A program made the position numbers and the translations under genes. DNA of 20,000 bases from an uncultured virus (IMG/VR IMGVR_UViG_3300045743_000142) (Duplodnaviria; Heunggongvirae; Uroviricota; Caudoviricetes; Schitoviridae), in IMG/VR virus record IMGVR_UViG_3300045743_000142; one strand, 5' to 3'. This document shows positions 1 to 17,534 of the stretch, in pieces (within the stretch, counting starts at the first letter, position 1; every line of letters starts with the position of its first letter). Below the pieces are notes generated by a model. That model did no database searches. It was not told where the DNA came from and saw only the letters and a program-made list of their open reading frames with translations.

Positions 1-2
1 CA

Positions 3-1997: not shown

Positions 1998-3178
1998 TCG
2001 ATCTTCTGTTGATGAAGCATGCCACTCCTCGTCAGACGGAGTATCTGAAAGCCATTGAAACTCATGGATCGGCCTACAAGGCAGCTAAAGCTCTAGGAGT
2101 GAGCGCAGGTAGCATCCACAACTCGATGGAGTCTCTGAAGCGGTTTGCGGCCTCTCAGGGTAGTGCTCGAGGCCACTTCGTTAGTGGTGTTGCACCTGGT
2201 TTCGCTATGGGCAAAGTGACCGTACAACGGGATGCTCACGGTGAGGTGGAACGTACGTGGGAACGGCAATCACCTGAGCAAGCCAATCAAATGGCTATGC
2301 TGAAGGAATTCGCAGTTACCCTGGGTGAGGGTGTCAAAGGTCTTGCACCCGTCTCCAAGGCCCCATTGCATGCCTCCAATGACCTGCTCTGCATCTACCC
2401 TTGGGGAGATCCTCACTTCGGCATGTTGGCTTGGTGGGAAGACGCTGGTGCAGACTTTGACCTTGACGAAGCAGAACGGCTCACTACAGGTGCTGTCGAT
2501 CGATTGGTAGACACTGCTCCTGTTGGTTCGATCGGATTGCTCCTGAATCTAGGCGATATGTTCCATGCCGATAACCAGAAGAACCAAAGCCAGTCTGGTC
2601 ATCAATTGGACGTCTCTGCTCGATGGGCTCAGGTTCAACAGGTTGGTTTGCGGGCAATGATTCACTGTGTGCGAAGGATGCTGGAGAAACACTCTCTGGT
2701 GATCGTGAAGATCAATAGAGGAAACCATGATGACCACAGTTCGTATGCTTTGTCTCTCATGCTGTCTTGTTACTTCCACAATGATCCACGGGTCAAGGTG
2801 GACCTCTCACCAAGCAATACCTGGTACTACGAGTTTGGTTCTGTACTGATTGGTTCAACCCATGGGGATGAAATCAAGGGCAAGGACATGGGTGCGGTGA
2901 TGGCAGCAGACAAGCCGCAGGCTTGGGGGCGCACCACTCACCGCTACTGGATGGTCGGCCATGTACACCACAAGGATGTGAAAGAGTACCCTGGCGTCAT
3001 CGTCGAGTACTTCCGCACCCTTGCAGCTCGAGATGCCTGGCACCAAGGCATGGGCTACCGTGCAGGTAGAGACATGCAGCTCGTGGTGATGCACCGTGAG
3101 CATGGTGAGATCGAACGCCACAGGTGTGACGTTGGAATGCTCACGGCTTCTGCTCAAGTCCTTGCTCTAGTCGCTTAA
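1994..3178 (+). CDS. N-terminal HTH fused to a calcineurin-like metallophosphoesterase
   Basis: HTH-like TPRQTEYLKAIETHGSAYKAAKALGVSAGSI; phosphoesterase motifs GDPH, LGDMFH, GNHD, THGD, GHVHH. Confidence 0.85.
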   Translation: MIDLLLMKHATPRQTEYLKAIETHGSAYKAAKALGVSAGSIHNSMESLKRFAASQGSARGHFVSGVAPGFAMGKVTVQRDAHGEVERTWERQSPEQANQMAMLKEFAVTLGEGVKGLAPVSKAPLHASNDLLCIYPWGDPHFGMLAWWEDAGADFDLDEAERLTTGAVDRLVDTAPVGSIGLLLNLGDMFHADNQKNQSQSGHQLDVSARWAQVQQVGLRAMIHCVRRMLEKHSLVIVKINRGNHDDHSSYALSLMLSCYFHNDPRVKVDLSPSNTWYYEFGSVLIGSTHGDEIKGKDMGAVMAADKPQAWGRTTHRYWMVGHVHHKDVKEYPGVIVEYFRTLAARDAWHQGMGYRAGRDMQLVVMHREHGEIERHRCDVGMLTASAQVLALVA

Positions 3179-3329
3179 TCACAGCCTCCCGAATACGAAT
3201 CTCTTCGGGAGTCTTGTGGTGGAAGAACGTAGTCTCATGCCCAGCCATGTACTGGGTATGACTGCAGTAGATCCAGACAGCTAGGAAGATCCAGAAAGCT
3301 GTCCAAGGTAGTGCGTTACCTTCAATCAT
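3141..3329 (-). CDS. Small hypothetical membrane protein (62 aa)
   Basis: ATG 3329 with AAAGGA RBS; hydrophobic N-terminus LPWTAFWIFLAVWIYC; last gene of the minus-strand block. Confidence 0.6.
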   Translation of the reverse strand: MIEGNALPWTAFWIFLAVWIYCSHTQYMAGHETTFFHHKTPEEIRIREAVIKRLEQGLEQKP

Positions 3330-3567
3330 TGGTTTGTCCTTTGTAGTAGAACTCTTCAGACATCCGTTGAGCAACCTTATCATTGACATACTTGTCGAGC
3401 CAAGCTGCTCTACGGCCTTTGCGATCCAGAATCTCAAACTCGAACTCTGCACCCTCTGAGGGGTAGCAGTTCTCGGGTCTACCCAAGAGCTGAGCTGGAA
3501 CTTCTGGCTTGTAGTGGATCACCTGGCACTGGCAGGGTATGCCATTGACGGTGGTATCGAAGATCAT
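3322..3567 (-). CDS. Hypothetical phage protein
   Basis: 81 aa ORF in a coupled chain; GIPCQCQV...PENCYP...EFEILDRKGRRAAWL resembles small conserved proteins of N4-like phages (recall only). Confidence 0.75.
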   Translation of the reverse strand: MIFDTTVNGIPCQCQVIHYKPEVPAQLLGRPENCYPSEGAEFEFEILDRKGRRAAWLDKYVNDKVAQRMSEEFYYKGQTND

Positions 3568-3740
3568 GGAAATAACTCTTCCGTAGATCGAGAATCATCA
3601 GGTGACTCGTCAGTGGTAAAGGTATCAGTGTTCCAGTCACACTCAAGATTACCTAGAGCACTACATAGCCGCTCATACGCTTCTTTTGGTGTACCTGCTG
3701 TTACCGTAATGGTGACGTTTAGGAAAGTAGTTTCCATCAT
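3564..3740 (-). CDS. Hypothetical protein (58 aa, not in ORF track)
   Basis: Hand translation MMETTFLNVTITVTAGTPKEAYERLCSALG...EELFP; ATGA overlaps at both ends. Confidence 0.7.
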   Translation of the reverse strand: MMETTFLNVTITVTAGTPKEAYERLCSALGNLECDWNTDTFTTDESPDDSRSTEELFP

Positions 3741-3940
3741 GCTTTCACCTGTGCAGCTTCCTTGAGTCGAGCAAAGTTAGCCTGAACAAAGTCATAGGCT
3801 TCTTCACTCAAGCCAGTCAACCACCTAGCACGGTGATCGAACATGTTGTACTTAGCACTACTACGCACCTTTTCGTAGGCTTTCCATGCTTCTATCTGAA
3901 GCTGGGTGAAGGGTAGGGGAGTATCTCCACTGTCGTTCAT
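3737..3940 (-). CDS. Hypothetical protein
   Basis: 67 aa ORF tiling the operon; YEKVRSSAKYNMFD motif. Confidence 0.7.
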   Translation of the reverse strand: MNDSGDTPLPFTQLQIEAWKAYEKVRSSAKYNMFDHRARWLTGLSEEAYDFVQANFARLKEAAQVKA

Positions 3941-3943
3941 GGT

Positions 3944-4129
3944 TTAGTCCGTATAGCTACCGCGGTGAGCTGGTGTGATCACAGCTTCCTCGGGATTCTT
4001 TTTCAAAGCCACCTTGACTGCATGGCGAGCTGCCCGCTCCTCTGACTTCATCAAGCATTGGCCAAACTTGGAGGCTTTGCCTCGTCTGCACTGAGTACAG
4101 CTGCAGGACTTCACGGTACCCTTGTACAT
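3944..4129 (-). CDS. Small basic Cys-containing hypothetical protein
   Basis: 61 aa with CxCxxC motif; start abuts the upstream stop (TGA-ATG). Confidence 0.7.
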   Translation of the reverse strand: MYKGTVKSCSCTQCRRGKASKFGQCLMKSEERAARHAVKVALKKNPEEAVITPAHRGSYTD

Positions 4130-4273
4130 TCAGGATTCCTCGTGAGCCAAGTGAAGGAATAGGTACACCATAGCCAGGTAGGCTGCATCAGGATGACCAT
4201 GACGGTTGAATCGGTTGGTGTAGTACTTGTGCCAGCCGATATTTGTGTTGGGGTACTTGGATGGGGTTCTCAT
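4130..4273 (-). CDS. Hypothetical protein (47 aa, not in ORF track)
   Basis: Hand translation MRTPSKYPNTNIGWHKYYTNRFNRHGHPDAAYLAMVYLFLHLAHEES; stop directly adjoins the next ATG. Confidence 0.6.
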   Translation of the reverse strand: MRTPSKYPNTNIGWHKYYTNRFNRHGHPDAAYLAMVYLFLHLAHEES

Positions 4274-4328
4274 GGTGTATATTCCGTTTACCGGCTGCGG
4301 GTATCAGCAGTATCTCCAAGGAATTGAA

Positions 4329-4406
4329 ATGCTGCAAGCGACGAAGAAGACTGCCCCCGTCAAGAAGAGCGGTGGTGGTAAAAAGGGTGGTGGCGGTAAG
4401 TGCTGA
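4329..4406 (+). CDS. Putative 25-aa Lys/Gly-rich peptide (MLQATKKTAPVKKSGGGKKGGGGKC)
   Basis: AAGGA RBS at 4318-4322, 6 nt before the ATG; occupies the only ~200 bp gap in the minus-strand gene chain here; followed by a bidirectional terminator. Confidence 0.55.
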   Translation: MLQATKKTAPVKKSGGGKKGGGGKC

Positions 4407-4441
4407 ACCACTGAACTACCGATCTCCTACAAGGAGATACG

Positions 4442-4470
4442 AAAACGCCCTGGTGATCCCAGGGCGTTTT
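4442..4470. terminator. Bidirectional intrinsic terminator
   Basis: Perfect 12-bp inverted repeat AAAACGCCCTGG-tgatc-CCAGGGCGTTTT between convergent stops at 4406 and 4473. Confidence 0.8.
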
Positions 4471-4472
4471 GC

Positions 4473-4637
4473 TTACTGCTTCGGTAGTGCGGACACAGAA
4501 ACACCAACCAGAGGGTCGATGCTTCCGTTGTCGTTGAAGGTATCCGTCAGATGCTCTGCTGCGGAGATGCCCAAGTTCTGGGCATCTTCCAAGTCATCTG
4601 CTTCTACCGTAAGTACTAAGGTGACTTCTACTTTCAA
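4473..4637 (-). CDS. Small acidic hypothetical protein (54 aa, TTG start, not in ORF track)
   Basis: MKVEVTLVLTVEADDLEDAQNLGISAAEHL...; TTGA overlap with the vWA stop; ends 2 nt before the terminator. Confidence 0.65.
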   Translation of the reverse strand: MKVEVTLVLTVEADDLEDAQNLGISAAEHLTDTFNDNGSIDPLVGVSVSALPKQ

Positions 4638-5950
4638 GCAGTCACGCCTTGAGCCTTACCAGCCACCTTCATCAGAGCTGAAGGCACCGACCACTTGCGA
4701 CCCTTGGGGGCCAAAGAGTTCTTCAGGATGGCCGTCTGCACGATGCCGTGAGCACCACAGAACATCCGAGCGTCTTCACGAGTCTCGAAGTACCGGAAGT
4801 TCGGAGTCACCGGGATCGGGCTCTTGGTGGGTGTGGTAGACACCGGCACTTGGAGCAGCTGTACCGGTGCAGTAGGAGCCGCCACAGGAGCCTTGGGCTG
4901 CAGGTAAGCCAGGTCCGCTGCAGTGAACGGAACACCAAGTTCCTTCCAGTACACGACACCCGAACCACCGACCAGTTTGCGGTTCACCGACTCGCTCTGA
5001 ATGAACAGGTCGAAGTTCTTGTGGTCACCAGGGTGCAGACGGGCATTCCGATCGGTCGGCAGACCAATCATCTGGCGAGCTTCCTTGCCAGAGTAGATCT
5101 TGCCGGTGACCTTCTCACGTACCAGAACCAGCTTGGTGTGGGACACCTTGGCTTCGGTCTTCGACAGTTGGTAGAAGGCAGCACCCTTCAGGTACTCCAT
5201 GCGGTGCTTCAGGATGAAGTCACGGATCTGGATGCCTTCGTCAGCCGGGTCTACCACATACAGGCTGACCTTCTTCGAGATGTCTTCCAGCACCGCCAGG
5301 TTGACCTGGGCAGCGTTGGCGTAGAACGAGCTCGAAGCGGTAGCGCCGGCGCTACGGGCAGCAAAGAAGCTACCCATGGCAGTGGTGGTCACCTGGGTCG
5401 ATGCAGCCATGCCGGCTTCCGTGGTATCCCACTTCTGGATGTTGTCCTTGGGGAAGCCAATGCGTTCCAGTTGGGCCAGGGTCCACTGGTTGGCAGTCGA
5501 CGGCACACGGGCCACGAACGACCAGCGACCGGTTGCCTTGACCGAGTTGATCAGGTCCGTCAGCGACTTCTCGTTGTAGAACGTGCTGTGGGCCTCTTCA
5601 CCGTCCGTGGTCACGAGGACCAGGAAGGAGACGTTCGTATCGGTGGCATCCGGCAGACCCTTGAACAGGTTCACCAGGTCAGCGATGCCGTCGAACAGCG
5701 GGGTGCCACCGTTGGTGGGCCACGAGGTCATGGGACGCAGCACGTGGGGGTTGGAGATCACCACCTGGCGCTTGGTCAGGGAGCCACCGGGGACACCCAC
5801 ACCGACCACCGACACCACGGTGTCAAGCATCTCGGTGTTGGCTGCGTTCTTCACGGCAGCGATCTGTGCGTTGTAGTCGGTCAAGGCTGCACGAGCCAGG
5901 TTCTGCATCGAGCCAGAGTGGTCGTTGACGAATCCGATGTAGTTCTTCAT
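4634..5950 (-). CDS. vWA (MIDAS) domain protein with additional C-terminal domains
   Basis: DHSGSM (DxSxS), GGTPLFDGI and VLVTTDGEE motifs; second domain with GAAFYQL...ARQMIGLP...FIQSESVNRKL; Pro/Ala linker and short C-terminal module. Confidence 0.88.
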   Translation of the reverse strand: MKNYIGFVNDHSGSMQNLARAALTDYNAQIAAVKNAANTEMLDTVVSVVGVGVPGGSLTKRQVVISNPHVLRPMTSWPTNGGTPLFDGIADLVNLFKGLPDATDTNVSFLVLVTTDGEEAHSTFYNEKSLTDLINSVKATGRWSFVARVPSTANQWTLAQLERIGFPKDNIQKWDTTEAGMAASTQVTTTAMGSFFAARSAGATASSSFYANAAQVNLAVLEDISKKVSLYVVDPADEGIQIRDFILKHRMEYLKGAAFYQLSKTEAKVSHTKLVLVREKVTGKIYSGKEARQMIGLPTDRNARLHPGDHKNFDLFIQSESVNRKLVGGSGVVYWKELGVPFTAADLAYLQPKAPVAAPTAPVQLLQVPVSTTPTKSPIPVTPNFRYFETREDARMFCGAHGIVQTAILKNSLAPKGRKWSVPSALMKVAGKAQGVTA

Positions 5951-5969
5951 GTGTGTTTGTGTTGAGACG

Positions 5970-5993
5970 AAAAAATGGCTCCACTAGGGAGCC
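5970..5993 (-). terminator. Intrinsic terminator-like hairpin
   Basis: Minus strand GGCTCC-ctagt-GGAGCC-A-TTTTTT downstream of the 6020 stop. Confidence 0.6.
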
Positions 5994-6019
5994 GGGTTGA
6001 GGGAACAGGTAGGTACTAA

Positions 6020-6247
6020 CTAGAAAGGAGTCAATCCCTTGTCGAAGGGTGTATCCGTGAAATCAACCCACACCCATGCTTGGACGTAGGTACCGTTGTC
6101 ATCGCCCTCAGAAAGAGTAGCGTTGTCATCGACCTCGAGTAAACCTTCACTGACGCATTGGTCTTTGGCCATTTTGACGATTGCAACTCGTCGAGTTTCA
6201 ACCTCGTGTGCAGCGTCTATGTGGGCTGTTTCTTCAGGGCTTGGCAT
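6020..6247 (-). CDS. Hypothetical phage protein
   Basis: Likely start ATG 6247 overlapping the upstream TGA; EVDDNATLSEGDDNGTYVQAWVWV motif. Confidence 0.7.
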   Translation of the reverse strand: MPSPEETAHIDAAHEVETRRVAIVKMAKDQCVSEGLLEVDDNATLSEGDDNGTYVQAWVWVDFTDTPFDKGLTPF

Positions 6248-6510
6248 CACAAATCCCCCATGCTCAAAGGCTCCAATCGAAAGCACTGAATCGTAACTAC
6301 TTCATCATCTGTGTTTGTGGTGATCAGTAAACCATCTTGATCTTCACAGAAGGATGCTTTCTGATCACGGATGCAGATCTGTTCTTCGGCGTACTCACCT
6401 ATCAGAGTGGCTGTTCGATCCTGAGGATCACAGCAGACATCAAAACCGTCTCCGTTGATCACAGCCTTTCCGGTCTTACTCAGTACGTCGTATGTGCTTA
6501 CTTGTGGCAT
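6247..6510 (-). CDS. Hypothetical acidic protein
   Basis: 87 aa; AAGGAAACCA-ATG right after the polymerase stop. Confidence 0.7.
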   Translation of the reverse strand: MPQVSTYDVLSKTGKAVINGDGFDVCCDPQDRTATLIGEYAEEQICIRDQKASFCEDQDGLLITTNTDDEVVTIQCFRLEPLSMGDL

Positions 6511-6518
6511 TGGTTTCC

Positions 6519-9131
6519 TTATGCCATTGAGGGGACTTCCCCTTTGGTGGCTTGACAGATATTGAAGATCGTCTCCCGATCAGCGTTGTTCGGGAGGGTT
6601 GTTGCCTTGGCCCATGAAGGCCAAAAGACATCTAGGGCAGCACCGAGCTTCACAGTGGGGTGCTGAATTTCAGGGAGCTCTTGCCACTGCATAGACTTGA
6701 TCAGTTCACGGTTAGCCCATTCCATCACGTCACTACGATCCCTAACCAGGATGTAGATGGCGTCATGGATCAAACCAACTGGCTTGATATCAAAGCGATA
6801 CTTCGAAGCCCAAACCTTGATCATGAAGTCCACTGCTGCACGGTTATTCAACAGGCCGTATGACTGCCCCATTGCGTTACCCGCAGTACGCCCTTCAGCA
6901 GCAGCTTCATAGGGCACCCGAGTACCCCATACAACCTGACCCAACAGAGGGGTTCTTACTCGTAGTCCGAAAGCCACTTCAACGAATCCATCCTTGGTAG
7001 CTTTCTCAAGCCTCGTCTGGATGTACTCGTCGCTGACCTTGTACATCTCGTGATACTTGGCTTCGACCATTCGAGCTTTCACCTCGTCCCATCCTTCGTT
7101 CACCATGAGCGTGTGGTACGTGCCCTGATAGGTGAGTGCGAAGGTAGGAGTCTTGGAATCCTGTCTCAGACTCTTGTGCGTCTTGGCTATTGAGTTCACT
7201 GACTTGGGATCATTCAGATCGATGTGTGGCAGTTGATCAGCGTAGTAGAACGCAGCACGAAGACAGTGCCCGTCAAACCCATCGGTGTAAACCTTGAGTT
7301 TGTTAGGATCCTTCGTGGTCAGAGCCGAGATCATGTCCTCCAACGAATTGAAGTCCGCTCCACAGAACAACCAACCAGTCGGACCTACGAAGCACTCTTT
7401 GATGAGCTTCCCGTAGATCGAGTTGGCAGGGATGTTTTGTAGATTGGGATCACTGCTCGACAACCGTCCGGAGACGGTTCCGCCCAGATTGAAACTCCCA
7501 TGAAGCCAGACTACGTTGTCACCCTTGAAGATCGCAGCCTCGAAGGCTGGGATGAATGTCGACAGTACCTTGGTGGCTTTGCCGTAGCCGATCAACGCAG
7601 CCAGGAGAGCTTTGTATGTTGGCTCCGTGGTGTGGTTGATCAGTTTCTCAAGAGTGTCAGCACCGGTGGCAGGTTGCTTGGTATCAGTGAGATCGAGTAC
7701 CGGTAGACCCATCTGCTCGTACAGCAACCTCTGGAGCTGCGGACCTGAGTTTGGGTTGAACTCCACATCATCGAAGTGAGACAGAGGATGCTGCTTGACC
7801 TTCAGCTTGGCATTGGCTTTCTCCATCTCCGTTTGACGGAAGATCAGGTTCAGCATCTTGATGAGTCCAGAGCCACGGATCACAGCTAGGTGCCCAGCCT
7901 GTATGCCCTCGAGCTTGGTCTTAACCTCTTTCACCTTCACAGGATCCAAAGGCATACCTATGAGTTCAATCTGGATGATCAACTTCAGGCTAGGCAGCAT
8001 GAGCGATCGATACAGCCCATCCTGGTTGTCTTCCACCATGATCGGGTAGTACTTGTCCCTCACGTAGGCTGTGGAGAGCCCGTCGATCAGGTTGTACTCA
8101 AGCAGCTTAGCCAAGGGCACCTTACGGATATCCTTGACTTCCACTGCCCAGTTCCCTGCAAACTCATGAGCCAGTGATTTCAAACCAAGCACATTACCTG
8201 CTGTACTGTTGATAGCCAGGTAGGTGATGATCTTGGTGTCGTGCATGTTCTTGCACAGCACATCCAAGCCAGTGAGCAGACCTTCAGTATCCAGGGCATC
8301 CTTCATCCACAGGGTATAGATGATGACTTTCACATCGTAAGACGCGTGATGCCAGGTGATCTCTCCTTGATATGTTTCTAGGAAGTTCTTGATGAGAGCA
8401 CGGACAACTGGATTCTCTTGGCGATATCCCTCAAAGCCCTCTACTGGTGGTACTGCATAGTTCTTGTAGTCACAAGCGAATGCCAACCCGTTGTGCTGAT
8501 CCCAGCAGAACGTGATGGTCCCTATCCCGGCCTCTGTAAACAGCAGCGAGAAGGCTTCAATGTCCGCGGTGAGCCTTGGGTACTGATGGAGCGATTCAAG
8601 GGCTCTAGCGATCTCCTGGACCCCTTTTGGGTACCATGCCGAATGGATGATTCCATGGCCAAGCACCTGGTAGGTACCCTTGATGTGATCCGACAGGGTT
8701 TTCAGGCTCAGGTCGAGCTTGACTTGCAGATCCGGGTTGTAGATCAGAGCTTGGTAGTTCAAACCAAGTACCACATTGATATGCTCGTATCCCTTCAGCT
8801 TGCAAGGGAAGACATACCCCAGGTGAGGTTCAGCCCTGGCTTGACCAGACAGCACCTTGAAGTAGTTCGCGTCAGCAACGTAGAGGTACTTGACTCCCAA
8901 CGAATCCAGTGCAGGAAGCAAGTTGTCCAGGTACTCTTTGATGAACTTGGCCGGAGCCTTGTTCACTTCGTTGTACTTGAGGTTGAATGCGATGACATCC
9001 TTGGGGAGTACGCCACTCTTCTCCAAGGGAGCAACGTAGTTGTTGATGAGTTCCTGCTTGTTGAAGGCAGTACTCTTTACCAACAGAGCAGTGTTGTAGG
9101 TGTTGTTCTCTTCAAAGATGATATGTCGCAT
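6519..9131 (-). CDS. DNA polymerase, family A, with 3'-5' exonuclease (N4-like)
   Basis: Exo motifs DIE, HHASYD, YNLID; TVSGRLSSSDPNLQNIP; motif A GADFNSLE, motif B RQDSKTPTFALTY, motif C IHDAIY. Confidence 0.97.
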   Translation of the reverse strand: MRHIIFEENNTYNTALLVKSTAFNKQELINNYVAPLEKSGVLPKDVIAFNLKYNEVNKAPAKFIKEYLDNLLPALDSLGVKYLYVADANYFKVLSGQARAEPHLGYVFPCKLKGYEHINVVLGLNYQALIYNPDLQVKLDLSLKTLSDHIKGTYQVLGHGIIHSAWYPKGVQEIARALESLHQYPRLTADIEAFSLLFTEAGIGTITFCWDQHNGLAFACDYKNYAVPPVEGFEGYRQENPVVRALIKNFLETYQGEITWHHASYDVKVIIYTLWMKDALDTEGLLTGLDVLCKNMHDTKIITYLAINSTAGNVLGLKSLAHEFAGNWAVEVKDIRKVPLAKLLEYNLIDGLSTAYVRDKYYPIMVEDNQDGLYRSLMLPSLKLIIQIELIGMPLDPVKVKEVKTKLEGIQAGHLAVIRGSGLIKMLNLIFRQTEMEKANAKLKVKQHPLSHFDDVEFNPNSGPQLQRLLYEQMGLPVLDLTDTKQPATGADTLEKLINHTTEPTYKALLAALIGYGKATKVLSTFIPAFEAAIFKGDNVVWLHGSFNLGGTVSGRLSSSDPNLQNIPANSIYGKLIKECFVGPTGWLFCGADFNSLEDMISALTTKDPNKLKVYTDGFDGHCLRAAFYYADQLPHIDLNDPKSVNSIAKTHKSLRQDSKTPTFALTYQGTYHTLMVNEGWDEVKARMVEAKYHEMYKVSDEYIQTRLEKATKDGFVEVAFGLRVRTPLLGQVVWGTRVPYEAAAEGRTAGNAMGQSYGLLNNRAAVDFMIKVWASKYRFDIKPVGLIHDAIYILVRDRSDVMEWANRELIKSMQWQELPEIQHPTVKLGAALDVFWPSWAKATTLPNNADRETIFNICQATKGEVPSMA

Positions 9132-9136
9132 TTAGC

Positions 9137-9295
9137 TCACTTAGGGATGCAGCGGGAACGCTTTTCGATATCCAGGGACTGCACTGCCTTCTGGCAGGCA
9201 ATATAGGAAGAGAACTCTCCCATGTAGCGCCACTCATACTGATCAGCGCGGGCATGTGGAGAGGTAATGATGGTCCAGATGAATAACAGAGTCAT
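9137..9295 (-). CDS. Small hypothetical, possibly exported protein (52 aa, not in ORF track)
   Basis: MTLLFIWTIITSPHARADQYEWRYMGEFSSYIACQKAVQSLDIEKRSRCIPK fills the gap between two genes; hydrophobic start, Cys pair. Confidence 0.6.
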   Translation of the reverse strand: MTLLFIWTIITSPHARADQYEWRYMGEFSSYIACQKAVQSLDIEKRSRCIPK

Positions 9296-9303
9296 GGTCT
9301 TAC

Positions 9304-9819
9304 TTAGATCAGTAGATTGGTGACCAAGCGCCGCTTCATCATTCCAATTGGCTCCTGGTTCTTATCTCTGAGGTGCATCACCCGTTCTTCTGCCAGGCGT
9401 GTCGTCTTGCAAGGACAAGTAGCCATAAGAGCATTGAGCGGATAGTGCACAGACTCGGGGAGGACTCGAAGATAGTCAGCCAGGTCACTCGATGAGTTGA
9501 GCACCTGGTTGATGAAACCAAGTACATAGGGTAGCTCATGGTTGTTGAGGGTACTCAGGTCTACCAAATATTCATCCATCTCACTACGAAGACTCGCGTG
9601 TAAACGATTCTTCTTGAGGGGTGGATGAGTAGAGTCGGTATTGTAGGTAACACCCTTGTAGGAGAAATGCTTGTGGCTGTAACCACCCATCAAGGTGTTC
9701 CTCATTACCAGGGTATCCAAGCGAGCCTTAAATTGCCTCTGCACCGGTCCGTAAAGGTACGAGTACAGAGCATCCTTCACTTGCTGTTTAGTCTTGGGAT
9801 CGTGTTCGAGCTTGTCCAT
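9304..9819 (-). CDS. Conserved hypothetical protein between helicase and polymerase
   Basis: 171 aa with GAG RBS; size and position match the gene between helicase and DNA polymerase in N4-like phages (synteny from memory). Confidence 0.8.
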   Translation of the reverse strand: MDKLEHDPKTKQQVKDALYSYLYGPVQRQFKARLDTLVMRNTLMGGYSHKHFSYKGVTYNTDSTHPPLKKNRLHASLRSEMDEYLVDLSTLNNHELPYVLGFINQVLNSSSDLADYLRVLPESVHYPLNALMATCPCKTTRLAEERVMHLRDKNQEPIGMMKRRLVTNLLI

Positions 9820-9846
9820 GTAAATCTCAAAAGGGAATGGTTTAGG

Positions 9847-11139
9847 TTAAGCCAAGTCCCCACACAAGTACACATGGTTTCTGGCTCGGGATACTGCGAC
9901 GTACAGCATGCGTGCGATCTGATCCCCTGAATTACAGCGACTCACATCGTCAAGATCGAGGAAGACTGAATCAAAGGTAGATCCTTGGGCTTTGTTAATG
10001 GTGCAAGCGTAAGCACCACGAAGGTCAACCCAGGAGTTTTCAATGATAGCCAACAAGTTGGTATCTTCAGCAGCACGAGCTACCTTGATACGTTCATTCT
10101 TCTCCGCCAAACTCTTAGGATGAAACGTACGTATCTTGTCATCCAACATTACCCAATTACCATTTACTTGGTAGTGTTGGCTGTCTGACTCAATCCCTGT
10201 TATCTGAACCAGTTGGTCAGTCTTCAGAGTCTGCTTCCCAACAGTTAGGAACGAGTTGCAGACTGCATAGTCATCCTCTTGAAAATGGGGATCACCTTTG
10301 GCCAGACTACGAACATACTGGTTAAAGGCAATGACGCACTTGTTAGTCCAACCGAGGATCTTGGAATCCTGATATCGCCAGTTAGGGCGGGTGAACTCAG
10401 CTTCAATTGCAGCGTTGAAGTCAGTACGGTTCAGCCTACGAACATAGTGACCATCTGGCTTGAAACCAAAGAATTCACCAGTGTTGACTGTGTGCCGAAA
10501 CTTGGTAGACAAGTCAACGATCGGATTGTCTTTGGCTTGTCGAACTACCTGAGTCAATGCTGCACCAGAGAACCCTGCATTGAATACAGGAGTGTTGGTT
10601 GACTTCACAGGGATCAGTTGAGCAGGGTCGCCAATAAAGACTACCTTGCTGTACTTGGTGCGTGTGAAGACATGACCAAGCAGTTCCTTATCGATGAAAG
10701 AGGCCTCATCAATAAACAATAGAACATACTCAGGAATCTGAAAGTTGTTCCGTGGAACCAACTTAGTCACATTGGTTCTGAAGTCGGTATCGACACGCAA
10801 TCCAAGGAATGACTGCACCGTACCCACATCCATGCCCGTGATCTGAGCCAGGTTCTCTGCGGCCTTATTAGTGGTTGCAGTGAGCTTGACCTCGTAATCC
10901 TTGGCTTGCGGATTGATCAATCGAATCGTCTTCTGGAAACCAGGCAGACGATCCATGATGGTCCGGACCAATGTGGACTTTCCACACCCTGAGTAACCAG
11001 ACAGAACGAATACCATTTCAATTGGATCCATGAGGAACCGATAGAAGGCATCCAGTGCTGCTTGTTGGTCCGTGGTCAGGGTGAGTTTGTCAAGATCAAG
11101 TTCAGTAGTTGCAGTAGTTGCAGTAGTTGCAGTAGTCAT
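9847..11139 (-). CDS. SF1B DNA helicase (Dda/RecD-like)
   Basis: Walker A GYSGCGKST, TATTNKAA, Walker B FIDEAS, GDPAQL, LTQVVRQ, TINKAQGSTFD, YVAVSRAR. Confidence 0.95.
   Translation of the reverse strand: MTTATTATTATTELDLDKLTLTTDQQAALDAFYRFLMDPIEMVFVLSGYSGCGKSTLVRTIMDRLPGFQKTIRLINPQAKDYEVKLTATTNKAAENLAQITGMDVGTVQSFLGLRVDTDFRTNVTKLVPRNNFQIPEYVLLFIDEASFIDKELLGHVFTRTKYSKVVFIGDPAQLIPVKSTNTPVFNAGFSGAALTQVVRQAKDNPIVDLSTKFRHTVNTGEFFGFKPDGHYVRRLNRTDFNAAIEAEFTRPNWRYQDSKILGWTNKCVIAFNQYVRSLAKGDPHFQEDDYAVCNSFLTVGKQTLKTDQLVQITGIESDSQHYQVNGNWVMLDDKIRTFHPKSLAEKNERIKVARAAEDTNLLAIIENSWVDLRGAYACTINKAQGSTFDSVFLDLDDVSRCNSGDQIARMLYVAVSRARNHVYLCGDLA
11103..11136. repeat. 9-bp tandem repeat (CAGTAGTTG x3 plus 7-bp partial) at the helicase 5' end
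   Basis: Exact repeats encoding M-TTA-TTA-TTA-TT. Confidence 0.9.
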
Positions 11140-11477: not shown

Positions 11478-12584
11478 CTAGATGTGATAGTGGATCACTC
11501 GACCAAATGGGGGAGTGAACTTCTCGTTGTTATGGATCAACCAGAGAGTCTCACTCTTGGCTACGTCACCATGGAATCGAAACTCCCCATCAGTGAACAC
11601 CATGAGCAGCTGCGGCTTCGCTGCATTGGCCCAAGTGATTACCGGTGATATAGCAGTACCACCACGGCCAATGAACTTGACTGCAGTGAGTTCTTTAAGA
11701 CTCTTCACTTCATCAATGGATTTGATGCAGGTGTCGAACTGGATCAGGGTGATCTTGTCAGGAGCCATCATCCTAAAGATAGTGGCAATCTCGGATACGA
11801 ACTGATGGAAGTCCGAATCAGATACTGAGCCAGAGATATCCACCGCAATAGCCAGGTCCATTAGCTTTTTTCCCCAGAGACTGGGTAAGTAGTGCTTAGG
11901 GAAGAACCTGCGATTCAACTTCTTGAATGAGTAATCACTCTTGTTGTATGTCTGCAGGTACTTTTGAAGCAGACGAGTCCAAGGGAGCTTGGGATTCAAC
12001 AAACCATTCAAGAAGATCTGGATATCACCAGGAATTGCTCCAGGGTTATCACCAGCCATCTTGGATTGGATAGCAGCACTAACCAGAATGTCTTCGACAC
12101 ACCGTTTAGCTTGCTCTATCTCTTCAGGGGTACCAGTCTCTGGCCGTACATCCTGCATCATTGGTTTACCTGGATTCTCGGGAAGAAGTTTGTAGACCTC
12201 TTCCCAAGCCATACCCTTGTACTTAGGGTCTGCGTATCCGTTCTTGGGCATCTTGAAACCACGCTCAATCAACTGAAGATTGATAACGTGATCCATAGCA
12301 ATGTTCGCCCTATCGGGACACATCCACGATTGCACTCGAATCGTATGCAGGTAAGCTGTGTGCATGGTTTCATGCAGCAACAGAAAGACCTGTTCTTCAA
12401 TATCCAAGCTCATGAAGAACTTAACATTGAATCGGATTTCTTTGGTGCTTGCACCAGCAGTAGAAATGCTGTTATCCCAAATATGCTTCAGAGAGAAACA
12501 CACAGTCGTGAAGAACACACTGTCAGGTTTACTCATCAGCGTAATCTTGGCTTTACTGAGAGCCTTATCGTGGTCAGTGATCAT
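11478..12584 (-). CDS. Putative metallopeptidase plus vWA-like protein (DUF2201-type; N4 gp25-like)
   Basis: HETMH (HExxH), NIAMDHVIN; C-terminal VDISGSV, QFDT, GRGGT, FTDG; likely start ATG 12584. Confidence 0.9.
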   Translation of the reverse strand: MITDHDKALSKAKITLMSKPDSVFFTTVCFSLKHIWDNSISTAGASTKEIRFNVKFFMSLDIEEQVFLLLHETMHTAYLHTIRVQSWMCPDRANIAMDHVINLQLIERGFKMPKNGYADPKYKGMAWEEVYKLLPENPGKPMMQDVRPETGTPEEIEQAKRCVEDILVSAAIQSKMAGDNPGAIPGDIQIFLNGLLNPKLPWTRLLQKYLQTYNKSDYSFKKLNRRFFPKHYLPSLWGKKLMDLAIAVDISGSVSDSDFHQFVSEIATIFRMMAPDKITLIQFDTCIKSIDEVKSLKELTAVKFIGRGGTAISPVITWANAAKPQLLMVFTDGEFRFHGDVAKSETLWLIHNNEKFTPPFGRVIHYHI

Positions 12585-12601
12585 GGTTTCTTTCTGAAAT
12601 G

Positions 12602-12624
12602 AAAAAGGGACCACTCGGTCCCTT
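12602..12624 (-). terminator. Intrinsic terminator-like hairpin
   Basis: Minus strand AAGGGACC-gagt-GGTCCCTT-TTT. Confidence 0.65.
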
Positions 12625-12645
12625 ATCACGGGGCGCAGGATGCGC

Positions 12646-12986: not shown

Positions 12987-13246
12987 GAGAACCTACTTAC
13001 TGCTCTGGCTTGTTTGGCTTTGTTCATGGTTCGTTGTGCAGCCAGAATGGCTTTACCGCGGTCTGTGGCTGTACCAACCCCATTCCGCAAATAATCCAGG
13101 TCGGTAGGCGTAACTACCTTGCCCATCAAGCCTTCGATGGCTTGGAGGAGCTCTTCGTTGAGAGCCAGTACTTCTGAGTGGTTAGTCTTCATAGCGACGG
13201 CATGGGAGACAGCGGCGAGAGCCGCAAGAGAGGATGTGTAGATCAC
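12983..13246 (-). CDS. Hypothetical protein
   Basis: 87 aa; GTGA overlap with the upstream gene; GGGAG RBS. Confidence 0.65.
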   Translation of the reverse strand: MIYTSSLAALAAVSHAVAMKTNHSEVLALNEELLQAIEGLMGKVVTPTDLDYLRNGVGTATDRGKAILAAQRTMNKAKQARAVSRFS

Positions 13247-13464
13247 AGGTGGATCTCCCCGATGTACTGGTAGAGCTTGCTCAAGGCTTTGGAGGCAGCT
13301 TCGATGTGCTTCTCGATGCGAGCCAGTTGCTTGGGGGTGAAGGCTTCTCGATGTGCTTCCAGACCCTCATGCTTCTCGAGTTGAGCCTCGATGGTGTCAA
13401 CCAAGTTCGCTGTCCGATCCAGCAGTTCATGTCGGTAGTACTCGACTTGTCGTAGAGTGATCAT
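13243..13464 (-). CDS. Hypothetical helical protein
   Basis: 73 aa; GGAG RBS; first gene left of attP. Confidence 0.75.
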   Translation of the reverse strand: MITLRQVEYYRHELLDRTANLVDTIEAQLEKHEGLEAHREAFTPKQLARIEKHIEAASKALSKLYQYIGEIHL

Positions 13465-13479
13465 GTTGGTTCTCCAATG

Positions 13480-13505
13480 AAAAAAGCCACCTCAGTGGGT
13501 GGCTT
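13480..13505 (-). terminator. Intrinsic terminator at the left edge of attP
   Basis: Minus strand AAGCCACC-cactga-GGTGGCTT-TTTT. Confidence 0.75.
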
Positions 13506-13532
13506 GGTAGCAGGGAAGTGGTAGCAGTGAGG

Positions 13533-13545
13533 TAAGTCGTTGATC
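13533..13545 (-). promoter_or_regulatory. IHF-like binding site (left arm)
   Basis: GATCAACGACTTA versus consensus WATCAANNNNTTR (one mismatch). Confidence 0.65.
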
Positions 13546-13558
13546 TACAAGGCGTAAT

Positions 13559-13607
13559 GCGGATTGCAAATCCGTCTAGTCCGGTTCGACTCCGGATCGC
13601 GCCTCCA
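13559..13607 (+). other. att core: 3' 49 nt of a tRNA-Cys(GCA) gene (not a complete tRNA)
   Basis: GCGGA-TTGCAAA-TCCGT anticodon arm, TCCGG-TTCGACT-CCGGA T arm, TCGCGCC-T-CCA end with the Cys U discriminator; no D arm upstream. Confidence 0.93.
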
Positions 13608-13622
13608 AAGAAAAGCCTTATA

Positions 13623-13635
13623 AATCAAGTACTTA
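13623..13635 (+). promoter_or_regulatory. IHF binding site (right arm)
   Basis: AATCAAGTACTTA matches WATCAANNNNTTR exactly. Confidence 0.75.
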
Positions 13636-13636
13636 G

Positions 13637-13669
13637 CAGCCTCGACAAGTTCGGGGCTGTTCTGTTTCT
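13637..13669 (+). terminator. Terminator downstream of the tRNA fragment
   Basis: CAGCCTCGA-caagt-TCGGGGCTG (one G-U pair) followed by TTCTGTTTCT. Confidence 0.65.
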
Positions 13670-13764
13670 GGGCCTTGGATGGCTACGGATAGCGGTGCTG
13701 CTACCGGGAATTGGTAGCGCTGCTACTGGTCACCGGACTGTGTTGTCCGTACAGTCGAGACACC

Positions 13765-14943
13765 ATGAGCATCTCTGTCCAACCCCGTGCTGGGGGTCGT
13801 CACCAGCTTCGAGTCGTCCATCGACTCCTCCCCAAGGCCTACTTCTCCACCTTCGAAGGTGAAGACAGTGAGCGACATGCCAGGGAGTACGGGGAGCAGC
13901 TGCACGCTCTGTTGGACGCGGGGATCCTTCCTGGTGAGCTAGTCGCTGATGCTCCCAAGACTGCCTTGGATCCAATGCTCACCGTGGTGATCCTGGACTA
14001 CATCAACAAGTCACCATCGCTGACTGACTCGGATGACCTCCTGTTGACCAGCATGGTCACTGAGATCACTGGCTTGAGAGTGAGCAGCCTCACATATGCC
14101 TGGGCAACTGGCTACGTGGCATCCCTCAAGAAGAAGGAGCTCGCACCAGGCACGATTCGCAAGCGGATAGGTGCACTGGGTAGGGTGATCGATTGGTATC
14201 TCTCCATGGTCACGCCAGGTGGCAAGGATAGGCCTACCAACTCACTGAGGCTACTACCCAAGGGGTACAGCACCTACACCAGGGTAGAAGGCCTAGCGCT
14301 GACATCTCAGAAGAAGACCATCCCTGTGGATGTGAGTAGGGATCACCGGCTTGGACCCAAGGATGGTGAAGCAATCCTGGGTGCTCTCGCCGGCGTCAAG
14401 AGGGAGGATAGGGAGCGATCGCTCGAACCAGATCCAGCCCTACGGATGCTCTACCTACTGATCGTCGACACTGGCTTGAGGCTTCGTGAAGCCTACCGTC
14501 TCAGGGTTGACCAGATTGACCTTCAGAGACGGGTCATCAAGGTAGAGGGAAGTAAGGGCCACCGAGGACTTATCAAGCCAAGGTTGGTTCCACTGAAGCC
14601 ACGCTTGGCAGAAGAGATAGCCCTGTACTTGTCTGACAAGACTGTCTTGGTCTTTCCATACTGGGATGGTTCCCCTGAGCAGCTGCGTCGTACTACGAAT
14701 CGACTGTCTCAGAGATTCAGCGTGCTGTTCGACTACGCTGGCTTGAATGACTTCACCGAGCATGACCTTAGACATGAGGCTACTTGTCGCTGGGTCGAGA
14801 TGCGTGGGAAGAATGGCCATTGGATGTACGGTGATGTAGAGCTCTGTCGAATCATGGGATGGACAGATACTCGAATGTTGTTGAAGTACGCAAGTCTGAG
14901 AGGTGAAGACCTCTCAGACCGCATGCTAGGCGTTGATGCCTAG
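13765..14943 (+). CDS. int: Tyrosine recombinase / phage integrase (392 aa from ATG 13765)
   Basis: TGLRLRE (Arg), GSKG (Lys), HDLRHE (HxxR), IMGW (H/W), LKYA (Tyr); core-binding motif LAPGTIRKRIGAL; adjacent attP. Confidence 0.95.
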   Translation: MSISVQPRAGGRHQLRVVHRLLPKAYFSTFEGEDSERHAREYGEQLHALLDAGILPGELVADAPKTALDPMLTVVILDYINKSPSLTDSDDLLLTSMVTEITGLRVSSLTYAWATGYVASLKKKELAPGTIRKRIGALGRVIDWYLSMVTPGGKDRPTNSLRLLPKGYSTYTRVEGLALTSQKKTIPVDVSRDHRLGPKDGEAILGALAGVKREDRERSLEPDPALRMLYLLIVDTGLRLREAYRLRVDQIDLQRRVIKVEGSKGHRGLIKPRLVPLKPRLAEEIALYLSDKTVLVFPYWDGSPEQLRRTTNRLSQRFSVLFDYAGLNDFTEHDLRHEATCRWVEMRGKNGHWMYGDVELCRIMGWTDTRMLLKYASLRGEDLSDRMLGVDA

Positions 14944-14944
14944 A

Positions 14945-15115
14945 TTACTTCGAGGCCTTGCTGCTGTGCTTGGCGTTCGAATGGCTCTTGCCACCGGTCT
15001 TCTTGGCTTTGGTGGTATGGGCCTTGCCACCCATGTCGCTGGCGTAGCTGGCCGGGACGATGGTGAATGCCATGGCGATGGCGGCGATCATGGTGAACAG
15101 GTAGGACTTCTTCAT
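14945..15115 (-). CDS. Small secreted Lys/His-rich protein (56 aa)
   Basis: Sec-type signal MKKSYLFTMIAAIAMAFTIVPASYA, then SDMGGKAHTTKAKKTGGKSHSNAKHSSKASK; stop abuts the int stop. Confidence 0.75.
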   Translation of the reverse strand: MKKSYLFTMIAAIAMAFTIVPASYASDMGGKAHTTKAKKTGGKSHSNAKHSSKASK

Positions 15116-15140
15116 GGTGGTTTCTTTCAAAGGTGCCTTT

Positions 15141-15431
15141 TTAGGCGGGTTGTAGTACAGGTAGTACCGGACGAGGGCGGGACGCCCTTACGGCTCTTGT
15201 AGGCCTTCCTGGTGCGTTCAGGATGCCTTGTGGTTTGGAGGGTGCTCGCCTGGTCAGAGATTCCTCGAGAGCAATCTCATCCAGACGAGCAAACAGAGCA
15301 CCGGCAGGGATGATCCAATCCTCTCCGAGCTTCACACCAGGTAGCCTGCCAGATCGACAGAGCTCTCTGACTGTGTACTCGGAGCAGTGGAGCAACACCG
15401 CAGCACTTTCTACGGTGTAGGGCGGGATCAC
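15141..15431 (-). CDS. Excisionase-like HTH DNA-binding protein (96 aa from GTG 15431)
   Basis: YTVESAAVLLHCSEYTVRELCRSGRLPGVKLGEDWII is a MerR-like/HTH_17 Xis signature; basic Pro/Arg tail; close to int. Confidence 0.85.
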   Translation of the reverse strand: MIPPYTVESAAVLLHCSEYTVRELCRSGRLPGVKLGEDWIIPAGALFARLDEIALEESLTRRAPSKPQGILNAPGRPTRAVRASRPRPVLPVLQPA

Positions 15432-15508
15432 TTCTTCTTGGGCAGCATCCAAGGCCACCAGATCATGATGGGGATGCGGAAGAAGATGGTGGTAAACAGG
15501 GGATTCAT
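15428..15508 (-). CDS. 26-aa hydrophobic peptide (not in ORF track)
   Basis: MNPLFTTIFFRIPIMIWWPWMLPKKK; ATGA overlap upstream and GTGA overlap with the xis-like gene. Confidence 0.6.
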   Translation of the reverse strand: MNPLFTTIFFRIPIMIWWPWMLPKKK

Positions 15509-15801
15509 TCTTCACTCCATTCATCTGCAAGGTCGGCTGCAAACAACAGGAAGGTGACACGAACGAATTGACGTTCCTTACCATCGAGGAATTCACTGAA
15601 CTCAGTCATGCTGGCTCCCATCCCTAAACGAAACAGGAATAGCTTGGCTTTGAGCTTTTGTCCTTGAGTGAACTTGTCGTCCAGGTACTTGGACTCAATA
15701 CCAAAGATCATGTCGCAGATGTATCTGGACTTACCTTTGATCGGCTCATCCTTGGGTATCCCAGCTGCTACTGCACGGAGAATGTCACCGGTGGTACTCA
15801 T
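15505..15801 (-). CDS. Hypothetical protein
   Basis: Likely start ATG 15801 (ATGA overlap, AAGGAG RBS). Confidence 0.7.
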   Translation of the reverse strand: MSTTGDILRAVAAGIPKDEPIKGKSRYICDMIFGIESKYLDDKFTQGQKLKAKLFLFRLGMGASMTEFSEFLDGKERQFVRVTFLLFAADLADEWSEE

Positions 15802-16118
15802 GACGAGAGCTCCTTGATGAGTGAGTCGAGCCACAAGTGGCGGAAGGTCTGGACGTTCTTGTGTGTGAGGCTGCGACGATTGGTCACGATATTGTTCAGG
15901 TATCCCACCACAGTACCGTGACCACCCAAACGCGACTCAACCAGATGCCTCGCTTCGGGGTAGAGAGGATGGTGTGAGCGTTTGATTGCGAAGCAGATGT
16001 AAGAGGTGCAGTCGAGGTAATCCTTCTGGTTCCCATGCCATAGGTGTGCTTTGGCTTGTTTGAACGCCTCAGCCATACCTTGGCGTTCTGTCTTGGTGTA
16101 CGTAAGCTGGACTCTCAT
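15798..16118 (-). CDS. Hypothetical protein
   Basis: 106 aa, coupled on both sides; YIC and QTFRHLWLDSLIKE motifs. Confidence 0.75.
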   Translation of the reverse strand: MRVQLTYTKTERQGMAEAFKQAKAHLWHGNQKDYLDCTSYICFAIKRSHHPLYPEARHLVESRLGGHGTVVGYLNNIVTNRRSLTHKNVQTFRHLWLDSLIKELSS

Positions 16119-16496: not shown

Positions 16497-17534
16497 CTAG
16501 AAGAGTTCGATCGCACTGGTAGCCACCCAATTGACAATGGCTGAGTGAGTACGAAGAGGCTTGTGCTTGCGAACAACCTCACGCATACAGATCACCTGGA
16601 ATTCCTTGGGAATACGGCCCAGGTAGGTCATGAATGAAGCAGCATTAGCAGCTGTGATGTTGTGACTCAGATTCCCTGTCATCGCATACAAGATGCTTGG
16701 TTCAGTGGGAACCTTGACACCCATGGGATCAACAGCAATCTTCTCGTGTTTGGGAAGGTTGTCGTAGATCTTGCAGAAGGTGAGGAACTCTCGAGCCACA
16801 CCTTCAGAGATAGTTCCTGCCAGCAAAGGAAGGATGTCAGGAGAATCAGTACCTTCTTCCTTCACCAGACGGTTAGCGAACTCCCATGTCCGGGGACAGG
16901 CATAGGTGTGATCCGTATGGTCAGGCTGAAAGGTGTAGATGTTGCCTGGTTTGAATTTGATCTGATCCGTGATGCGGTGATCAAAGTCATTGGCTACAGC
17001 CCAGTCACACCATTCCTGAGAATCAACAACCAGCTCCAAGTGAAGCAATCGTGATTCAAGAGCAGTGCTCATAGGTTGAACAATGGCACCATCAGACTCG
17101 AGGTTGCCAGCCATCACGATGGCTACGTTCTTGTGGAGCTTGTAGCTACCCACACCACGGTCCAGAACGAGCTTGTAGGCTGCTGCTTGGATGGCTGAAG
17201 GTGCTGACGTAGCCTCATCCAGAAACAGAAGCCAGCCTGCATAGGCTTGACCAGTAACTGGATTGATGGGCAGTGGATCCCCTTCGATGGGGAAGTGCAT
17301 CATCGGTGCGTAGTCAGCTTTGGTTCCCATGATCATGGGGAAACCAGCAAGGTCGGTAGGATCGCATTGAGCCAACCGAAGGTCGATTACCTTCAGGTTG
17401 TATGCTGCAGCGATCTGATAAATGATCTGTGACTTACCAATGCCAGGACTTCCCTTCAGTATGGGGACAATCCGGGTCTTGATTGCAGTAGTGATCATCC
17501 GAACTGCTTGGGAGGTCTTGACTTGAATAGCCAT
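16497..17534 (-). CDS. MoxR-like AAA+ ATPase (N4 gp24-like)
   Basis: Walker A GSPGIGKS, IDLRLAQCDPTDLAGFP, Walker B LLFLDE, sensor AGN, Arg finger ALESR, CPRTWEF. Confidence 0.93.
   Translation of the reverse strand: MAIQVKTSQAVRMITTAIKTRIVPILKGSPGIGKSQIIYQIAAAYNLKVIDLRLAQCDPTDLAGFPMIMGTKADYAPMMHFPIEGDPLPINPVTGQAYAGWLLFLDEATSAPSAIQAAAYKLVLDRGVGSYKLHKNVAIVMAGNLESDGAIVQPMSTALESRLLHLELVVDSQEWCDWAVANDFDHRITDQIKFKPGNIYTFQPDHTDHTYACPRTWEFANRLVKEEGTDSPDILPLLAGTISEGVAREFLTFCKIYDNLPKHEKIAVDPMGVKVPTEPSILYAMTGNLSHNITAANAASFMTYLGRIPKEFQVICMREVVRKHKPLRTHSAIVNWVATSAIELF

Follow-up and report, generated by a model that had tools for sequence, protein, structure and literature searches.

A tRNA-Cys integration module suggests a temperate-capable lifestyle in an uncultured N4-like phage

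We analysed a 20,000-nt stretch of DNA, hereafter the window, from the IMG/VR virus record IMGVR_UViG_3300045743_000142, and focused on a segment at 13484-15431 that lies within a block of N4-type replication genes. The segment contains a fragment of a tRNA-Cys gene flanked by short repeats, a tyrosine integrase gene (int) and an excisionase-like gene (xis). N4-like phages are generally regarded as strictly lytic, which is part of the reason for their choice in phage therapy. An earlier note on this DNA, made from the letters without database searches, had read the segment as part of the free or excised form of a temperate N4-like phage that integrates into tRNA-Cys.

The attP core occupies 13560..13607 on the plus strand and consists of 48 nt that correspond to the 3' part of tRNA-Cys(GCA), from the 5' strand of the anticodon stem to the terminal CCA. 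A comparison of the core with bacterial tRNA genes, which the earlier note had suggested as a check, returned exact matches to host tRNA-Cys genes: 13560-13607 agrees at 48/48 nt with the last 48 nt of tRNA-Cys(GCA) genes of Burkholderiales. The tRNA piece had been described as 49 nt long (13559-13607); the fragment is real, but the identity covers 48 nt only, as position 13559 is G in the window and A in the 20 commonest upstream variants of the host (66 matches together). Among species-representative genomes, one per species, the exact 46-mer 13562-13607 was present in 98 stretches with 100 matches. Nearly all of these (95/100) lay within full tRNA-Cys genes that have the 5' half GGCGCGATAGCAAAGCGGTTATGCAACG ahead and start with GGCGCGA, the very start that had been predicted for the host tRNA; one further match was at a contig start and the remaining four were copies of the 3' fragment only. 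Further, the 80 of the 98 titles that were listed all belong to betaproteobacteria, the class that had been suggested as possible, except for one unspecific 'Proteobacteria bacterium'. The genera among the matches listed included Variovorax (at least 14), Hydrogenophaga (at least 12), Rubrivivax (at least 10), Ottowia (at least 7) and Comamonas (at least 5). ARAGORN called no tRNA anywhere in the 20-kb window, so the tRNA-like block is a fragment and not a gene. An Rfam search at E<=1 found no tRNA in the window either, and it missed the known tRNA-Cys fragment too. In addition, k-mer contigs of four public metagenome runs break exactly at 13560 and 13607, and short contigs with host tRNA-Cys 5' halves overlay the core, which confirms the edges of the shared block.

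The tyrosine integrase is encoded at 13765..14943 on the plus strand. Its open reading frame (ORF) is open from TTG 13711, and ATG 13765 is the more probable start, giving a protein of 392 aa. The PF00589 catalytic domain scores 49.9 bits against a cut-off of 27.1, and the protein matches phrog_1 (integrase) at 3e-21. R239 (within TGLRLRE) and K264 are invariant in 6/6 aligned sequences, and HDLRHE, MGW and RYAS are kept in 5/5 full-length aligned sequences. We take the R, K, HxxR, W and Y of these motifs to be the catalytic residues, with which a XerC-like alignment agrees; all five are conserved, so the integrase is as complete as the earlier note had held. The xis gene, at 15141..15431 on the minus strand, encodes a 96-aa helix-turn-helix (HTH) protein from GTG 15431. 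Its identification as Xis-like was likewise upheld, as it exceeds the cut-offs of the TIGR01764 excisionase family (31.7 bits against 28.8) and of HTH_17 (37.5 bits against 27), and it also matches the phrog_1840 excisionase (1.6e-5). Xis homologues adjoin the related integrases in two other loci (L002 and L038). Between int and xis, a 56-aa ORF (14945..15115, minus strand) has a hydrophobic, signal-peptide-like N-terminus and a Lys/His-rich tail; no family match was found for it in Pfam, PHROGs or NCBIfam, and it may be a secreted, lysogenic-conversion moron. The G+C content is 54-55% over 13001-16000, which includes the module, versus 46-51% in the adjacent replication genes, and this fits a cassette gained from a higher-GC source.

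Integrase searches of viral and metagenome contigs yielded relatives at 61%, 72% and 30% identity, and four relatives were found with context: Curvibacter phage PCA1, IMG/VR contig L002, Pseudaquabacterium pictum W35 (G001) and a small contig (L032) of a metagenome-assembled genome (MAG). In P. pictum W35, a 50.8%-identical integrase lies directly after an intact tRNA-Cys gene, and a second copy of the tRNA-Cys 3' end is found 39.6 kb off on the same strand (G001:C1:621646-661307). The two copies have 46 nt in common, beginning at the anticodon loop's first T and ending with CCAAG (read by eye), and between them are genes for a tail fibre, a tape measure protein, a major head protein, a protease, a primase, a CI-like repressor and the integrase. 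We interpret the copies as the attL/attR pair of a siphovirus-type prophage, and their position around a related integrase indicates that this integrase family targets tRNA-Cys. Like the window, the prophage joins this integrase (51% identical) to a Xis homologue and has tRNA-Cys next to int; unlike the window, it is of siphovirus type, lacks an N4-type DNA polymerase (PolA) and is integrated, whereas the window shows attP.

Phage PCA1 (OP588919) encodes an integrase that is 38% identical over 93% of its length. It shares with the window the order of tRNA-Cys piece, int and divergent excisionase gene, an IHF-type site (for integration host factor) after CCA, where CCTTATAAATCAA..ACTTA is conserved, and a Comamonadaceae host. 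It differs in being a 58-kb, tape-measure-bearing phage of siphovirus type whose replication genes form another set. According to the excerpted text (PMC9763317), the integrase is the sole ground on which its authors considered it temperate. The PCA1 record annotates a 72-nt tRNA-Cys at OP588919 23382-23453 (L001 15757-15828). ARAGORN called no tRNA at this locus, and only the 3' part aligns with the tRNA piece of the window; the annotated gene is probably an attP fragment rather than a phage tRNA gene. Contig L002, of a temperate phage, has a 60%-identical integrase with a full tRNA-Cys gene and a Xis homologue alongside; its other genes, including those for a ParB-like protein, a reverse transcriptase and a repressor, are not N4-like. 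The reverse transcriptase of L002 (4280-5755, minus strand; phrog_1423, 1.9e-110) stands beside the ParB-like gene and may belong to a retron or other defence element. In L032, a 45%-identical integrase follows a full tRNA-Cys gene. The 72%-identical relative is on a 2.4-kb contig (L150) with no tRNA piece upstream of the integrase; the end of an ORF that is H-NS-like by reading of its translation lies there. Furthermore, a Comamonadaceae MAG (L070) holds a fragment-only tRNA-Cys copy after two tandem AGTAGC repeats and GTAAGTCGTTGATCT, a layout that mirrors the P arm of the window, with host genes opposite (a UDP-glucose dehydrogenase and a PstS-like protein). On the element side of this locus (L070 3001-3150) are GAF, response-regulator-like, HTH_17 and Lon-protease genes, and the fragment resembles what an island leaves as a scar or has at its end, rather than a phage.

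Five repeats of the GGTAGCAG type flank the core of the window, two in the P arm and three in the P' arm. The former are tandem copies of TGGTAGCAG(G/T)GA(A/G)G at 13505..13532 on the plus strand (starts at 13505 and 13519, 14 nt apart), and the latter lie just before int at 13697..13729 in the order -,+,- (CTGCTACC, TGGTAGCG and CTGCTACT); an identical -,+,- triplet, read by eye, precedes the L002 integrase. Motifs were counted over the 20-kb window and the chance level was taken from 200 shuffles. GGTAGCR has 8 exact matches, 4 of them inside 13506-13719 (214 bp around the core), and a count of 8 was reached by 0/200 shuffles. Arm repeats were thus found on both sides of the core, as the earlier note had claimed, and so were its IHF-like sites. 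The left IHF-consensus site, ATCAACGACTTA at 13533..13544 (minus strand), is 15 nt from the core and is also conserved in PCA1 and L070; the right one, ATCAAGTACTTA at 13624..13635 (plus strand), is 16 nt from the core and is also conserved in PCA1 and L002. Only two matches to ATCAANNNNTTR exist in the 20 kb, and they bracket the core. This count alone is not above chance (2 was reached in 59/200 shuffles), and we regard the sites as meaningful because of their position beside the core and their conservation in relatives, not because of their number. Two terminator-like hairpins complete the arrangement. The first, at 13484..13505 (minus strand; GCCACC..GGTGGC and then a T run), forms the outer edge of the P arm and immediately precedes the ribosome-binding site and start of the gene at 13464-13243. 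The second, with a T-rich tail, spans 13635..13671 on the plus strand (hairpin proper 13635-13661), and equivalent hairpins come after the tRNA in L002, in attL of P. pictum W35 and in PCA1. The candidate attP, as judged from these motifs, has arm-type repeats on both arms and putative accessory bending sites.

We are highly confident that 13484-15431 is a true attP-int-xis unit for tRNA-Cys, and we take the module to be a real and probably active integration unit specific to this target. With a probability of roughly 0.7, we read it as the module by which a temperate-capable phage integrates and excises, present here in the unintegrated (attP) arrangement, and the reading proposed in the earlier note is supported to that extent. 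In the mechanism that we propose, the N-terminal domain of the integrase would bind the five arm sites and its catalytic domain the core, while host IHF would bend the DNA at the two flanking ATCAAnnnnTTA sites. Strand exchange would occur inside the 48-nt block common with host tRNA-Cys(GCA), most likely at the anticodon loop, because the left edge of the P. pictum W35 repeat lies there. Williams is said to have defined, in 2002, anticodon-loop sublocation classes of tRNA-gene integration. Integration would split the host tRNA-Cys gene; the phage 3' part and the terminator at 13635-13671 would rebuild a working tRNA-Cys next to int, and the prophage would have at its far end the 3' fragment displaced from the host gene. 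The HTH excisionase (15431-15141) would steer recombination the other way. This anatomy does not differ in principle from a lambda-type attP, which likewise has a shared core, arm-type repeats on both arms, IHF sites and Xis. Integration into a tRNA gene that restores the split gene and leaves a displaced fragment is standard in the excerpted account of the Islander concept (PMC4383910).

Phage genes flank the module on both sides, as the earlier note had stated and as family matches and synteny confirm. To the right are ligase genes and an AAA+ ATPase gene of N4 gp24 type (16497..17534; the protein is 64% identical to that of relative G002, see below). To the left are genes for a DUF2201/vWA-like protein of N4 gp25 type (11478..12629; 62-63% identical to G002 and G003), a Dda-like superfamily 1 helicase (9847..11139; assigned by family matches and synteny), a family A DNA polymerase of N4 type (PolA; 6519..9131; family matches, best hits and synteny) and, after PolA, a 438-aa protein (4634..5950; phrog_26613) that is conserved in G002 and G003 (63-67% identical). 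All of them are on the minus strand, and these replication genes converge on a plus-strand lysis cassette at 790-1876. The 438-aa protein also has a 44%-identical counterpart in the jumbo Caulobacter phage Cr30, which is no help in typing the phage. At the N-terminus of the helicase gene, 11103-11136 holds three copies of a 9-nt unit (ACTACTGCA) encoding MTTATTATTATTE; this coding tandem repeat is polymorphic, being one unit short in run X2 (see below), and public-run contigs break there.

Placement of the carrier as N4-like was based on best hits, synteny and the hallmark genes of relatives. The best PolA matches among 2838 phage records are 51-55% identical, and the two that were checked are Schitoviridae; Salmonella phage FSL SP-058 and Pseudomonas phage Littlefix both have a 55%-identical PolA and the same ATPase/vWA/helicase/PolA set. 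The best matches of the ATPase, at 44-49.5% identity, are from Erwinia and Vibrio phages. PolA, ATPase and synteny thus agree with the N4-type replication set recognised by the earlier note. A megablast search of 50,697 phage records with the entire window as query gave no match. Unlike cultured Schitoviridae, the window has no run of primase, single-stranded DNA-binding protein (SSB) and virion RNA polymerase (vRNAP) genes after PolA, and Littlefix, unlike the window, has no integrase in 1-50,000 of its 74,895 nt.

In IMG/VR, 23 contigs encode a relative of this PolA, and the five closest (G002-G006; 48-75 kb) are 66-75% identical, with 75% for G002 and 70% for G003. The ATPase, vWA, helicase, PolA and 438-aa genes are co-linear in the window, G002 and G003. 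Using residues 900-2200 of the Littlefix vRNAP as query, we detected a vRNAP-like giant ORF in 5/5 closest relatives, four of 3418-3597 aa and that of G002 cut by the contig start. G002 and G003 both encode the N4-type primase, a gp44-like protein and SSB; G003 also has an N4-type major capsid protein, portal and terminase large subunit (54-63% identical to Littlefix), and G002 the genes of the two-subunit RNA polymerase II (RNAP1 and RNAP2). The window itself was found in two riverine metagenome runs from different studies, with all sampled words in run X1, which may be the source run, and 0.77 of them in run X2. A contig of 63,603 nt from X1 ends in window positions 1-11127 without differences; the window is therefore preceded on its left by at least 52.5 kb, and if that contig is phage throughout, the genome would be at least 72.5 kb. 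Because its relatives carry the hallmark genes and the genome would reach this size, the carrier is very probably a vRNAP-bearing N4-like phage, most likely a podophage of river water with a genome of about 73 kb. Its host would most likely be a betaproteobacterium of Comamonadaceae or Sphaerotilaceae type.

Integrase genes recur in this group. A PF00589 match was found in 5/5 closest relatives (four above the cut-off), in 15/23 PolA relatives overall and in 9/13 of those at least 90% complete. In G002 and G003 the integrase gene is directly upstream of the vWA gene, that is, in the same slot between ATPase and vWA, which we propose to be a variable slot occupied here by the module. The integrases in this slot belong to another lineage and are co-oriented with the replication genes, and that of G003 is 45-49% identical to those of Bcep22-like and GP4-like podophages. 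A recombinase is encoded about 2 kb after PolA in G004 and G006 and about 7 kb after it in G005. Two of the 23 PolA relatives are classed as proviruses. Outside the five closest relatives, the provirus contig G415 (PolA 62% identical) combines, within 22 kb, its PolA with a complete ABC-F ATPase gene of the host (L158 1-3000; NF011646, 1023 bits against a cut-off of 762). The start of this gene is 28 nt from the integrase stop, and the order is ABC-F gene, integrase, then a Xis-like ORF and phage genes. The contig may be chimeric rather than a true junction; if it is true, att site and ABC-F gene would overlap at the 5' end of the latter. Provirus G409 ends exactly at the stop of an integrase gene that has 97% DNA identity to that of G415. 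An Rfam search near the integrases of the five relatives, blind to the window's own fragment, found only a full tRNA-Arg in G004. This tRNA-Arg(ACG), at L133 2872-2948 (G004:C1:14057-14133) on a complete 73.5-kb contig, is about 0.9 kb from the recombinase and may represent an attP that carries a whole tRNA gene.

Several observations weigh against a temperate-capable phage seen in attP form. The presence of an integrase gene is no guarantee of lysogeny. The excerpted text of PMC9144972 gives JC1, which uses a serine recombinase at rimO, as the only phage among the Bcep22-like and GP4-like podophages shown to integrate; despite attempts, no stable lysogen of Bcep22, BcepIL02 or DC1 was obtained. 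The integrase lineage of the window was found in 0/5 closest N4-like relatives and only in ordinary temperate phages. Family and profile searches of the window revealed no vRNAP, RNA polymerase II subunit, primase or recognisable repressor. With one query, N4-type PolA was detected in 0/802 sampled Burkholderiales genomes (0/401 of the family of P. pictum W35 and 0/401 of its order). Finally, no public-run k-mer contig bridges the P-core-P' join, and no hybrid attL/attR join was seen in public-run contigs among the pieces listed. The search for attL/attR junctions that the earlier note had called for was thus answered for the 51%-identical integrase of P. pictum W35 and for the P-arm look-alike in L070 and, in the contigs listed and the genomes sampled, not for this phage.

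The strongest of the alternatives, which we still consider unlikely, is that the module is intact in sequence and the phage effectively virulent, with the cassette a recent or decaying passenger that gives no stable lysogeny, for example because the programme is driven by an injected RNA polymerase without a matching repressor. The missing repressor, the absence of N4-type PolA from the sampled genomes and the resistance of recombinase-bearing Bcep22-like podophages to lysogen isolation (PMC9144972, in excerpt) would all suit such a passenger. However, both int and xis are open with all catalytic and family signatures kept, the core is still identical at 48/48 nt to the tRNAs of living hosts, the PF00589 gene is retained in most of the nearly complete relatives (9/13), and one relative, G415, appears to be integrated beside a host gene. 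We therefore prefer a phage able to enter the prophage state, and it is fairly likely, as far as sequence can tell, that this phage actually lysogenises.

A second alternative concerns the carrier, which could be a mosaic, that of a podophage with a borrowed replication block of N4 type and no virion RNA polymerase. The window has no vRNAP or N4 structural gene. It encodes a Gp77-type fibre-tail adaptor, named after the Ralstonia podophage GP4, and a YuA gp49-like protein, and Bcep22-like and GP4-like podophages resemble it as Burkholderiales podophages with an integrase and a Gp77-type adaptor; their integrase lineage differs from that of the window. Moreover, the genes at 3-793 and an exonuclease gene at 1994-3178 have no counterpart in G002 or G003. 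The latter gene (plus strand, after the lysis cassette) encodes a 394-aa protein of phrog_704 ('DNA repair exonuclease') whose N-terminus has a weak HTH. Nevertheless, of 36 window ORFs tested, 14 match G002, 10 match G003 and 18 match either, in the same order and at 42-75% identity, and the lysis cassette is among the genes matched in G003. G002 and G003 each have vRNAP together with further N4 hallmarks, and a genome of at least 72.5 kb, if the X1 contig is all phage, would fit the roughly 70-75 kb of N4-like phages. The Gp77-like protein has only weak actinobacteriophage matches, which do not help to type the phage, and a Gp77-like gene is also present in one of the five closest relatives, the vRNAP-bearing G005. 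We regard a mosaic carrier as improbable, and an N4-like carrier with its own virion RNA polymerase is retained.

It is very improbable that the attP join is an assembly artefact, in which the assembler fused the two ends of a phage integrated in the sample at the 48-nt tRNA repeat. In four runs the k-mer contigs do break at 13560-13607 and none bridges it, yet the order ATPase-[int]-vWA is contiguous in the independent contigs G002 and G003, the X1 depth is alike on both sides of the core (37.9 left and 35.9 right), a 48-nt repeat is shorter than ordinary reads, and no hybrid join occurs among the contigs listed. The broken public-run contigs neither support nor contradict the attP form versus the integrated form. 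Lastly, we can scarcely credit that the tRNA-like stretch is a remnant of a phage-encoded tRNA gene minus its 5' half and unrelated to integration: phages often carry tRNA genes, and the PCA1 record annotates its copy as one, but the match to host genes is free of mismatches up to a sharp end at the anticodon stem, the stretch is immediately next to int and lies between arm repeats and IHF sites, and this block recurs in the attL/attR of a related integrase.

Temperate N4-like phages have already been proposed in print, tRNA-targeted integration is textbook knowledge, and the module defines no new category. Zheng et al. (mSystems 2023; PMC10654107) reported, in the excerpted text, 54 N4-like genomes and proviruses with lysogeny genes from IMG/VR and GenBank, subfamilies in which over 75% of the members have such genes, and 40 proviral regions, chiefly in Moraxella. 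Those genomes, like the window, are N4-type with a tyrosine integrase, come from aquatic metagenomes and were read as temperate. With such genomes and proviruses published, and PF00589 in 15/23 PolA relatives, the novelty implied by the earlier note was overrated. The window differs from that account in having its target (tRNA-Cys of Burkholderiales), core, arm sites and Xis all defined; the excerpted part of the account contains no attP/attB anatomy. What is new here is a fully readable attP with a named target and host group, and a cassette common with siphovirus-type temperate phages of the same hosts, from which it appears to have been acquired.

A broader reading, which we hold tentatively and at slightly less than even odds, is that lysogeny is maintained in a freshwater clade of vRNAP-bearing N4-like phages whose integration modules are swapped as cassettes. 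On this reading, integrases of three or more lineages would occupy two or more slots of the replication block in this clade, one between ATPase and vWA (the window, G002 and G003) and one 2-7 kb after PolA (G004-G006). The targets would differ as well, G415 using the start of an ABC-F gene, G004 possibly tRNA-Arg and the present phage tRNA-Cys, and the cassette of the window would derive from siphovirus-type temperate phages of Comamonadaceae. The window also indicates that the integration cassette moves between unrelated phage backbones. The readable attP, together with the predicted attB and host group, makes the 2023 claim of 'lysogenic N4-like viruses' testable at the bench. If the swapping of cassettes proves true, the clade would be suited to studying how a lysogen silences a transcription programme that an injected RNA polymerase sets in motion.

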